From contig JACIVQ010000004.1 of assembly GCA_014361445.1 (NCBI GenBank), forward strand, positions 1-49,489: DNA of 49,489 nt, in the 5' to 3' direction. Position 1 is the first letter of the stretch, and the number at the start of each line of letters is the position of its first letter. The notes under the pieces were generated by a model that had not been told where the DNA came from, did not search any database, and was given only the letters and a program-made list of their open reading frames with translations. Positions 35,476 through 37,284 of this stretch are shown here, piece after piece. The position numbers and the translations under genes were made by a program. The stretch comes from Methanosuratincolales archaeon. GTDB lineage: Archaea > Thermoproteota > Methanomethylicia > Methanomethylicales > Methanomethylicaceae.

Positions 35476-37284
35476 ATGCCACTAAGGCAACCTATAGTCA
35501 CAGTCTTGGGTCATGTTGATGTAGGTAAAACTCTGTTGTTGGACAAGATCAGGGGCACAGCCGTGATGGCGCGCGAGGTTGGGGCCATGACCGCTCCTCT
35601 ATTTTAGCGGTGGCAGACCCAGCACATCGGCGCCAGCTTTCTCCCAATGGATGTTATTGTAAAGTATTGCAGCTCTGTTGTTAAAGGATTTGAATCAAAG
35701 ACTCAGCTACCAGGGATCCTGATAATCGATACACCTGGACACGAGGTCTTTTCAAACCTGAGAGTTAGAGGAGGGTCTGTCTCAGATATCTCTATCCTCG
35801 TCATCGACATACTCAAGGGCATTGAACGCCAGACTGAGGAATGTATTGAAATCTTAAGGTCCAGAAAGACGCCCTTTGTTGTTGCTGCGAATAAAGTTGA
35901 CCGGATAGAGGGCTGGAAGTCGCACCCAAACAAACCATTCTTAGAGTCCTATAAACTCCAGGAACCTTACGTCAGGGAAAGGGTAGACGAGATGATTTAC
36001 AGGATCGTTGGAGGACTTGCTAGGTTTGGGTTCTCGTCAGACCGATTCGATCGCATCCGGGACTTCACAAGGTCCGTAGCGATTGTGCCTACAAGCGCGG
36101 TGACAGGGGAAGGAATACCCGAGCTCCTTGCACTCCTATGCGGGCTGGTCCAACAGTACTTAACTCGACGTCTCTCAGTAACTGACGGTCCTGGCAAGGG
36201 GGTCGTCCTTGAGACCAAAGAGGAAGCTGGTCTTGGGACAACTATAGACGTGATATTATACGAAGGGATCCTGCAAAAGGGTGATAGGATCGTTGTAGGT
36301 GGTTTTGAAGGACCTATCGTAACTAAGGTCAGAGCGCTGCTCCTCCCCAAGCCCCTCAACGAGATCCGCGATCCAGAAGACAAGTTCCTATCGGCTGAAA
36401 AGGTCGTAGCTGCGGCGGGTGTGAAGGTTGTTGCGACCGGTCTAGAGGGCGCCGTCGGGGGCGCACCTATTATCGTGGCTAACGACGATTTATCCCTAGA
36501 ACAAGCAAAGAAAAAGATAACCGAGGAGATGTCTGAGCTTAGGTTCTCTACAGACGCCGACGGTATTGTCGTAAAAGCTGATACGCTAGGTTCACTCGAG
36601 GCACTCGTGAAATTCCTTAAGGACTCAGGCATCCCAGTTCGCATCTCAGATATAGGTCCTATTGGGAAGAGAGAGGTGATCGAGGCAGCGATCGTCAAGA
36701 GGAGGCGACCTGAACTTGCAGCAATCGTGGGTTTCAATATAAAGGTCACACCAGAGGCTGAATTAGAATCGCGGAATCGTGGCATCCCGATATTCACAAG
36801 TAATGTGATCTACCACATAGTCGACGACTTCAAGGCATGGTCCGCAAAGACCTTGGAGGATATTCGAACTAAGGAGTTCAGCCAGATAACTTTGCCTGGC
36901 GAAGTAAGGATCATTCCTGGCTGCGTCTTCAGAAAGAGCTCTCCACCAATATTTGGCGTCGAGGTATTAGCTGGCACAATTAAGCCTGGCTATCCTTTAA
37001 TGAAGGAGAATGGAGAAGTTTTGGGCGAGATAATGCAGATCCAAGACAGCGGCAAGACTATAGACCTCGCAAAGAAAGGCGACAAAGTGGCGATCTCGAT
37101 GAAAGGGAACTTTATGGTCGGCCGTCAAGTGAAGGAGGGTGATACACTCATGGTATCGGTGCCTGACAATGACATATTTCTGCTAAAAGAAAAGTTCAGT
37201 GACAAAATCTCTAAGGAGGAACTCGACCTTCTAGATAAGATCCTTAAAATTCGCTGGAAGGACTCGCCCCTTGGGACCTCCTGA
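35476..37284 (+). CDS. infB: Translation initiation factor aIF5B (IF2); join(35476..35589,35617..37284), 593 aa after splicing
   Basis: Exon 1 [38 protein letters not shown] (G1 motif) is absent from the ORF track; exon 2 TQHIGASF...IDTPGHE...NKVD...[19 protein letters not shown] before ATG 35476. Confidence 0.95.
35590..35616 (+). other. 27-nt bulge-helix-bulge intron in infB mRNA with an in-frame TAG (35605-35607)
   Basis: GTTGGG-GCCA-TG^A-CCGCT-(cctctatttt)-AGCGG-TGGC-AG^A-CCCAGC: 6-bp outer helix, 4-bp central helix, two 3-nt bulges, 5-bp inner helix. Confidence 0.88.

Follow-up and report, generated by a model that had tools for sequence, protein, structure and literature searches.

A probable tRNA-type intron in the messenger RNA of the archaeal translation initiation factor aIF5B

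The DNA considered here, hereafter the window, is a stretch of 49,489 nucleotides (nt), contig JACIVQ010000004.1 of assembly GCA_014361445.1, from a member of the family Methanomethylicaceae (Thermoproteota, class Methanomethylicia). On its forward strand lies infB, the gene for translation initiation factor aIF5B, within the conserved archaeal cluster S28e, L24e, ndk, infB, S6e and aIF2-gamma. The infB coding sequence is interrupted by 27 nt that are very probably a bulge-helix-bulge (BHB), or tRNA-type, intron in the pre-mRNA of this single-copy gene. The predicted parts of the gene are as follows.

35476–35589, + strand: infB exon 1, 38 codons (M1–M38) that include the P-loop; aligns with residues 14–49 of PDB 5fg3.
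35590–35616, + strand: candidate BHB intron of 27 nt, with an in-frame TAG at 35605–35607; relatives have inserts at the same site.
35617–37284, + strand: infB exon 2, 555 codons from T39 (TQHIGAS, switch I), with the stop codon at 37282–37284.

The start of infB was assigned to the ATG at 35476 on the basis of the listing of open reading frames (ORFs) and their translation, and a Shine-Dalgarno-like GGTGA, recognized by eye, is located at 35467–35471, four bases upstream. The frame opened by this ATG is ended by the in-frame TAG, giving an ORF (35476–35607) for a peptide of only 43 amino acids (aa). The long infB ORF that is listed begins at 35647 and encodes 545 aa. Its match to the Pfam GTP_EFTU profile starts only at position 63 of 188, and the P-loop and switch I are therefore absent from it. 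This truncated ORF (35647–37281) is present in the public protein collection as a predicted protein (NCBI and Logan, 2 contigs); the 43-aa ORF was not found in the same collection. Public annotation thus carries an aIF5B that has neither P-loop nor switch I. When the TAG is read as X, the infB frame stays open over 35476–37284, a total of 602 positions, or 593 aa once a nine-residue insert is subtracted, and the window's own P-loop is intact. The identity of the read-through protein as aIF5B is based on full-length matches to curated equivalog models (792 bits to NCBIfam NF003078, archaeal IF-2, cut-off 468; 741 bits to TIGR00491, cut-off 554.75) and to solved aIF5B structures (PDB 5fg3, E 2e-188; PDB 1g7r, E 2e-177). 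Its alignment to 5fg3 has a single gap of nine residues, precisely at TAPLFxRWQ, between GAM and TQHIGAS. As the insert interrupts infB, synthesis of the protein has to be preceded by removal of these bases from the mRNA and joining of its two parts.

Around the insert the transcript can be folded into a motif of the kind cut by the archaeal splicing endonuclease, EndA, whose elements are these.

35578–35583, + strand: 5' strand of the outer helix (h), GTTGGG, in exon 1; pairs with 35618–35623.
35584–35587, + strand: 5' strand of the central 4-base-pair (bp) helix (H), GCCA, in exon 1; pairs with 35611–35614.
35588–35590, + strand: bulge 1, TGA; predicted 5' cut after 35589.
35591–35610, + strand: inner hairpin (h'); stem 35591–35595 with 35606–35610, loop 35596–35605.
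35611–35614, + strand: 3' strand of the central helix (H), TGGC, in the intron; pairs with 35584–35587.
35615–35617, + strand: bulge 2, AGA; predicted 3' cut after 35616.
35618–35623, + strand: 3' strand of the outer helix (h), CCCAGC, in exon 2; pairs with 35578–35583.

The motif is of the strict hBHBh' form, with an outer helix of 6 bp, a central helix of 4 bp, an inner helix of 5 bp and two 3-nt bulges on opposite strands. The minimum free energy fold of the single sequence (-26.4 kcal/mol) has the same shape, with one A-U pair slid so that the central helix is 3 bp; the RNAalifold consensus of 14 distinct 27-nt versions from relatives takes the form with the 4-bp central helix. EndA cuts between the second and third residues of each bulge, as stated in the available part of PMC2738675. 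Removal of 35590–35616 by this rule joins ATG to ACC, so that the predicted spliced junction is GCCATG followed by ACCCAGCAC and the product reads EVGAM-TQHIGAS, the sequence of intron-less relatives. The tetranucleotide GACC is present at both borders of the insert (35589–35592 and 35616–35619). Because of this repeat, any removal of 27 nt from 35589–35615 through 35593–35619 gives the same product, and the exact cut site cannot be read from the product alone. In a scan of the whole genome for the strict motif (outer helix of at least 5 bp, inner helix of at least 4 bp, length 11–250), 2598 motifs were recovered in ~7.0e8 placements (2 strands x 1,456,804 x 240 lengths), or ~4e-6 per placement, and the placement of the infB motif had been fixed beforehand by the nine-residue gap in the protein alignment to 5fg3.

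A first-pass annotation, made from the letters of the window and a list of their ORFs, had proposed this intron, and our analyses bear it out. Every statement that it made on the sequence (the start at 35476, the listed ORF without P-loop, the in-frame TAG) holds. The helices and bulges lie where it had placed them and are backed by the 4-bp consensus form and by covariation (below). The 593-aa product and the unspliced peptide of 43 aa that it derived, together with its splice positions, agree with the ORFs, the read-through frame and the gap relative to 5fg3. Its expectation that gene callers would truncate the gene is borne out by the public collection, and a second intact infB elsewhere, which it said would speak against an intron if RNA also had no spliced junction, is absent: the metagenome-assembled genome of the window (1.46 Mb, 87 contigs, 90% complete) has one infB copy, the only other match being a paralogue of 30% identity.

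To place the insert in a wider setting, we searched 62 genomes of the class and read the N-terminal region of infB in each. The region could be assessed in 58; in two genomes it ran into contig ends (G001, G051) and two gave no match (G011, G044). Of these 58, 41 had an insert of 22, 25, 27, 29, 30, 31 or 33 nt at the codon boundary that is interrupted in the window, and the other 17 had none. Removal of the insert gave REVGAM-TQHIGAS in all 41. The strict BHB rule was passed by 36 of these, and the remaining five (G039, G049, G050, G056 and G059) had one mismatch each, beside a bulge or in the central helix. The insert is missing from four genomes within the intron-bearing family (G006, G008, G016 and G023), in which the helix-forming exon segments are preserved. 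Their sequence at this point is the predicted junction, GCCATGACCCAGCAC, either in that form or with synonymous changes. As congeners of G006 and G023 carry the intron, these alleles point to at least three precise intron losses. Families f3, f5, f7 and f9 have neither the insert nor the helix-forming codons.

Inserts at the same site (switch I, site B) also occur in two other classes of Thermoproteota, as seen in a sample of 251 genomes from the phylum, for which the results hold among the matches listed, and in full searches of the two classes. In the class of genome G090 (17 genomes), seven have a site-B insert, six have none and four could not be assessed; the inserts are 24 nt in four genomes of family f23, 29 nt in G174, and 32 nt in G125 and G132. 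In the class of genome G229 (26 genomes), eight have an insert (17–22 nt), 17 have none and one gave no match. The codons at the site in these two classes specify GGI, GGM or GEM. The alignment of related infB genes that the first-pass annotation had suggested yielded presence and absence, compensatory changes, frame-shifting lengths and intron-less alleles with the predicted junction, and the occurrence of the insert in dozens of independent assemblies disposed of the assembly artefact that it had wished to see checked.

Across the three classes, 52 distinct versions of the interruption were collected, and the coding boundaries (where the M/I codon ends and where the T codon starts) were all that was used to place the BHB in each. 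The versions are 17–33 nt long. The frame is shifted in 20 of them, and all 32 in-frame versions contain an in-frame stop, often a TAA or TAG to which the central helix (3' strand) and bulge 2 both contribute. With 13 pairs scored in 52 versions, standard pairs were found in 656 of 676 cells (97.0%), compared with 28–41% when the 3' partner was slid by 1–3. All 13 pairs are standard in 34 of the 52 versions and all four central pairs in 51. An A-N-A bulge 2 is seen in 51 of 52; at the third position of bulge 1, 34 versions have A, 14 have T and 4 have G. Between classes the central helix changes with the encoded codons (GCCA/TGGY, GGGA/TCCY, GAAA/TTTC, GAGA/TCTC), such that central pairs c2 and c3 are found as CG, GC and AT. 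In the set of 14 distinct versions of 27 nt, pairing extends to 99.0% of cells, and to 100% in the six pairs of the outer helix and in the central helix. Two-sided changes in these sequences affect four pairs and 16 cells, all in the inner helix (four of its five pairs). Their covariation score of 0.311 was reached by 0 of 500 shuffles and compares with 0.011–0.078 for slid controls. The sequences are related and so are not independent trials in these pairing and covariation statistics, a caveat that does not extend to the slid controls, to the variation in length or to the way in which the central helix differs between classes.

Evidence at the RNA level came from a relative in the same family. 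Locus L013 is from a Methanosuratincola genome, and the stretch is identical to the chromosome of Methanosuratincola petrocarbonis; its predicted intron is at 1615–1641. Contigs from two RNA-seq runs (X2 and X3, study P2) that span L013:1300-2000 lack 27 letters at 1615, exactly those predicted, at word depths of 3203 (X2) and 4151 (X3). The genome, and a contig from run X1 (probably DNA, from another study), retain the 27 nt. Since the 27-nt insert is kept in 8/8 assessable genomes of that genus (g7), the X2 and X3 contigs are very likely spliced mRNA.

The genome of the window encodes the machinery that such splicing would use. EndA is represented by a pair of paralogues (185 and 177 aa; C27:7378-7626 and C67:7859-8119), each of which exceeds the cut-offs of Pfam and of TIGR00324. 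Against models of the fused two-domain enzyme, one aligns with the C-terminal half and its partner with the N-terminal half, and from these matches we read the pair as a putative catalytic plus structural subunit. The ligase RtcB is at C59:4664-5971 (587 bits). ARAGORN, run with its intron option, called 39 tRNA genes in the genome, of which 18 were flagged as intron-bearing with introns of 12–98 nt, and on that count the tRNA splicing machinery is in heavy use; some of these intron calls look doubtful, such as a tRNA-Gln with a 76-nt intron, or a call whose anticodon is at position 111. No tRNA gene was found in the window by the default scan.

Taken together, the data suggest the following pathway. 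In the transcript, exon 1 codons 35–38 and exon 2 codons 39–41 would form the outer helix, GCCA of exon 1 would pair with UGGC of the intron to give the central helix, and the two bulges would flank it on opposite strands. A two-subunit EndA (alpha plus beta) would cut after the second base of each bulge, and RtcB would ligate the exons (GCC AUG/ACC CAG), thereby restoring EVGAM-TQHIGAS and the full protein. Unspliced mRNA would yield the 43-aa peptide only. We infer, rather than observe, that splicing takes place in the window's own organism, and the same applies to the fate of the excised intron.

Several points weigh against an intron. EndA and RtcB are the presumed, not the observed, enzymes. 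The minimum free energy fold is only modestly better than those of shuffled sequences (z -1.93; 10 of 200 shuffles were as good). The RNA evidence is from a relative with ~75% protein identity and not from the window's own organism, and it consists of assembled contigs from one study, which give no ratio of spliced to unspliced transcripts; an RNA run examined at the level of raw reads (X10) gave 0 reads of any kind on the L013 locus. Between the X2 and X3 contigs and L013 there are also 8 differences in 701 places, and no genome locus with these eight variant letters was found (the best had five of the eight; other species were 86–89% alike). It is conceivable, though improbable, that an intron-less DNA allele of the X2/X3 strain was carried into the RNA library. 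That no locus examined represents this strain, and that intron-less alleles occur within the family, would suit an explanation in which such an allele is the source of the contigs and some different mechanism deals with the insert, or in which the insert is an artefact of assembly. We give this explanation only a slim chance. An artefact is excluded by the insert's presence in so many independent assemblies, the eight Methanosuratincola genomes and the 99%-alike, DNA-like X1 contig all keep the 27 nt, and with 4–6 million contig letters per run the depths of 3203 and 4151 fit transcripts and not stray DNA.

Other explanations would leave the RNA uncut. In programmed bypassing of the type known from phage T4 gene 60, matching take-off and landing codons lie at the borders of the gap. 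Ribosomes in the window would take off at ACC 35590–35592 and land at ACC 35617–35619, over a hairpin and a stop codon, with GACC repeated at both borders, and the product would be the identical 593-aa protein. The ACC/ACC match is, however, not a conserved feature: with T or G as the last base of bulge 1, 18 of the 52 versions have no 5' border codon that matches ACC. Bypassing also has no need of two 3-nt bulges four bp apart, yet this geometry is kept in 97% of cells, and it would not remove bases from RNA, whereas the 27 nt are absent from the contigs of the RNA runs. We therefore regard bypassing as highly improbable, and we think just as little of the proposal that the gene is dead or split, in which a 43-aa P-loop peptide would be made alongside a separate 545-aa protein from 35647, or infB would be a pseudogene. 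Gene calling does yield exactly these two ORFs and the longer of them is publicly listed, but this is the only infB in the genome, a start at 35647 loses switch I, and the exons are 95–97% identical in protein sequence within the genus and have no further defect. The interruption is, moreover, common to 41 of 58 genomes of the class, with the same motif restored on its removal. Read-through of the stop codon, or recoding of TAG, with nine extra residues kept in switch I, seems the least probable of all. It draws on the insert of the window being a multiple of three with a single TAG, and it is excluded by the existence of frame-shifting versions (20 of 52). Among the in-frame versions are ones with TAA, with TGA or with more than one stop, the residues encoded by the insert are not conserved, and the solved structures of aIF5B have no residues at this point. 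Thus, a BHB intron is the reading that we favor for 35590–35616.

While reading infB across the phylum, we noted a second interruption, located within the P-loop codons (LGH/VDHGKT), of 17–30 nt and with a BHB-like fold of its own (e.g., TCTA GGCC ... GGCT TAGA). It was observed in the N-terminal 200 nt of infB at loci L092 (G174), L093 (G125), L094 (G132), L095 (G117), L096 (G103), L097 (G235), L098 (G075), L101 (G166) and L103 (G152). Some genomes have both the P-loop insert and the switch I intron. Several of the P-loop motifs have short helices, with 3–4 bp in the outer and 2–5 bp in the inner helix. Spot checks of ten phylum genomes revealed an uninterrupted N-terminus in seven (G080, G062, G077, G121, G147, G175 and G071); the infB match began at residue 13–14 in G108 and G171, and at residue 17 in G070. 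The first two of these three belong to family f29 (L106/G108, L107/G171) and have a frame-shifting insert of 31 nt, one base off the P-loop site, that forms a 9-bp hairpin and reads LGH followed by IDTGKT in another frame. The strict BHB rule found no motif in this insert, and a parse by eye failed owing to an extra G on the 5' strand, so that it would be a relaxed form at best. At L108 (G070:C1:49150-49850), the infB match from residue 17 lies inside an open frame of 759 aa with an unusual N-terminus, and the anchor motif was not found there. Genome G225 was flagged with one TAA in the phylum sample and was set aside, there being no stop in its 589 aligned codons. Genome G139 has two full infB copies (G139:C13:12368-14110 and G139:C3:86524-88266) and G080 an extra fragment of residues 1–54 (G080:C27:170023-170184). 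These may represent contamination, duplication or a mixture of strains in the bins.

The genome-wide scan was also used to look for further introns in mRNA. A filter for motifs whose removal merges ORFs retained 237 of the 2598 at loose settings and 34 at lengths up to 90, among which infB ranked second by pairing score. No second mRNA intron was shown in this genome by a screen to which relaxed BHBs and in-frame introns that have no stop are invisible; the other candidates, for which there was no homology follow-up, resemble adjacent genes or out-of-frame noise. The first-pass annotation knew of no BHB intron in infB. This fits our literature search, in which no report of one was found, subscription journals and supplements being beyond its reach; a search on Methanosuratincola found no paper that also mentions introns. 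In the accessible text of Schwarz 2020 (PMC7714728), the cbf5 intron is the only BHB intron reported in mRNA besides a case in the 5' untranslated region (UTR) of a Haloferax gene. Likewise, the portion available of Yokobori 2009 (PMC2738675) describes archaeal pre-mRNA splicing as confirmed for no gene but cbf5, others being predicted, and a structural paper on EndA from 2025 (PMC12397907) cites, in the part that is accessible, only cbf5 papers with respect to mRNA.

A second host gene that is essential and universal, in three classes and partly at two sites, would mean that tRNA splicing acts on mRNA more widely than has been thought. Because gene callers give a 545-aa protein that is devoid of P-loop and switch I, infB is mis-annotated in these lineages, and this affects homology and marker-gene work that uses infB. 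The system is tractable, as the family has cultured members, including Methanosuratincola strains with complete genomes. The repeated precise losses, the site common to several classes and the exon codons that are constrained at the RNA level make it a clean system for the study of intron gain and loss in archaea. That the intron might couple translation initiation to the capacity for tRNA and rRNA processing, as had been suggested in the first-pass annotation, is a hypothesis. A broader proposal, which we put forward tentatively and consider rather unlikely, is that infB in many uncultured Thermoproteota keeps one or two ancient micro-introns (in the G1 P-loop and G2 switch I codons) because synthesis of aIF5B would then depend on spare EndA and RtcB activity, such that the start of translation is throttled when the maturation of tRNA and rRNA falls behind; archaea would in that case have their own counterpart of regulated, unconventional mRNA splicing.

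Among the closest known parallels is the BHB intron in cbf5 pre-mRNA, reportedly described by Watanabe in 2002. The cbf5 gene, for a pseudouridine synthase, carries it in Desulfurococcales and Sulfolobales, according to the accessible part of PMC2738675. Like that of infB, it is a tRNA-type intron within a coding frame, with a BHB recognized (presumably, for infB) by a hetero-oligomeric EndA, with lineage-specific precise losses and with mis-annotation by gene callers. The two differ in host gene and in lineage, the infB intron being found in Methanomethylicia and two further classes of Thermoproteota, and infB introns are very short (17–33 nt). The infB motif is also mostly of the strict hBHBh' form, whereas the BHBs of cbf5 are mostly unconventional, as described in the available text of PMC2738675. 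The window has a cbf5 gene of its own (20079–21029, + strand), which is an uninterrupted open frame of 330 aa with no stops (452.6 bits). In Haloferax volcanii, the mRNA of HVO_1309 resembles that of infB in having a BHB that is cut by the splicing endonuclease; unlike in infB, its intron is in the 5' UTR and the frame is uninterrupted, and the host is euryarchaeal with another type of EndA (PMC7714728, accessible part). Introns of pre-tRNAs share with infB the geometry of the motif, the cut rule and the enzymes, EndA and RtcB being presumed for infB. In contrast to pre-tRNAs, however, the helices in infB are built of protein codons with no tRNA body to aid recognition, and removal of the intron restores a reading frame and not an anticodon loop. 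In eukaryotes, a small intron in HAC1/XBP1 mRNA is cut at stem-loops by a protein endonuclease and the exons are joined by a tRNA-type ligase, such that only the spliced form encodes the full protein. The IRE1 nuclease and its motif are unrelated to the BHB, and that system is stress-regulated by design. This IRE1-dependent splicing, which is named in the accessible part of a review (PMC13149111), is thus an analogy to the infB case, which is not a member of that system. Overall, infB, which encodes an essential translation factor, very probably joins cbf5 as a host of introns of this known kind; the infB intron is conserved and would be processed by the EndA/RtcB pathway that also serves tRNAs.

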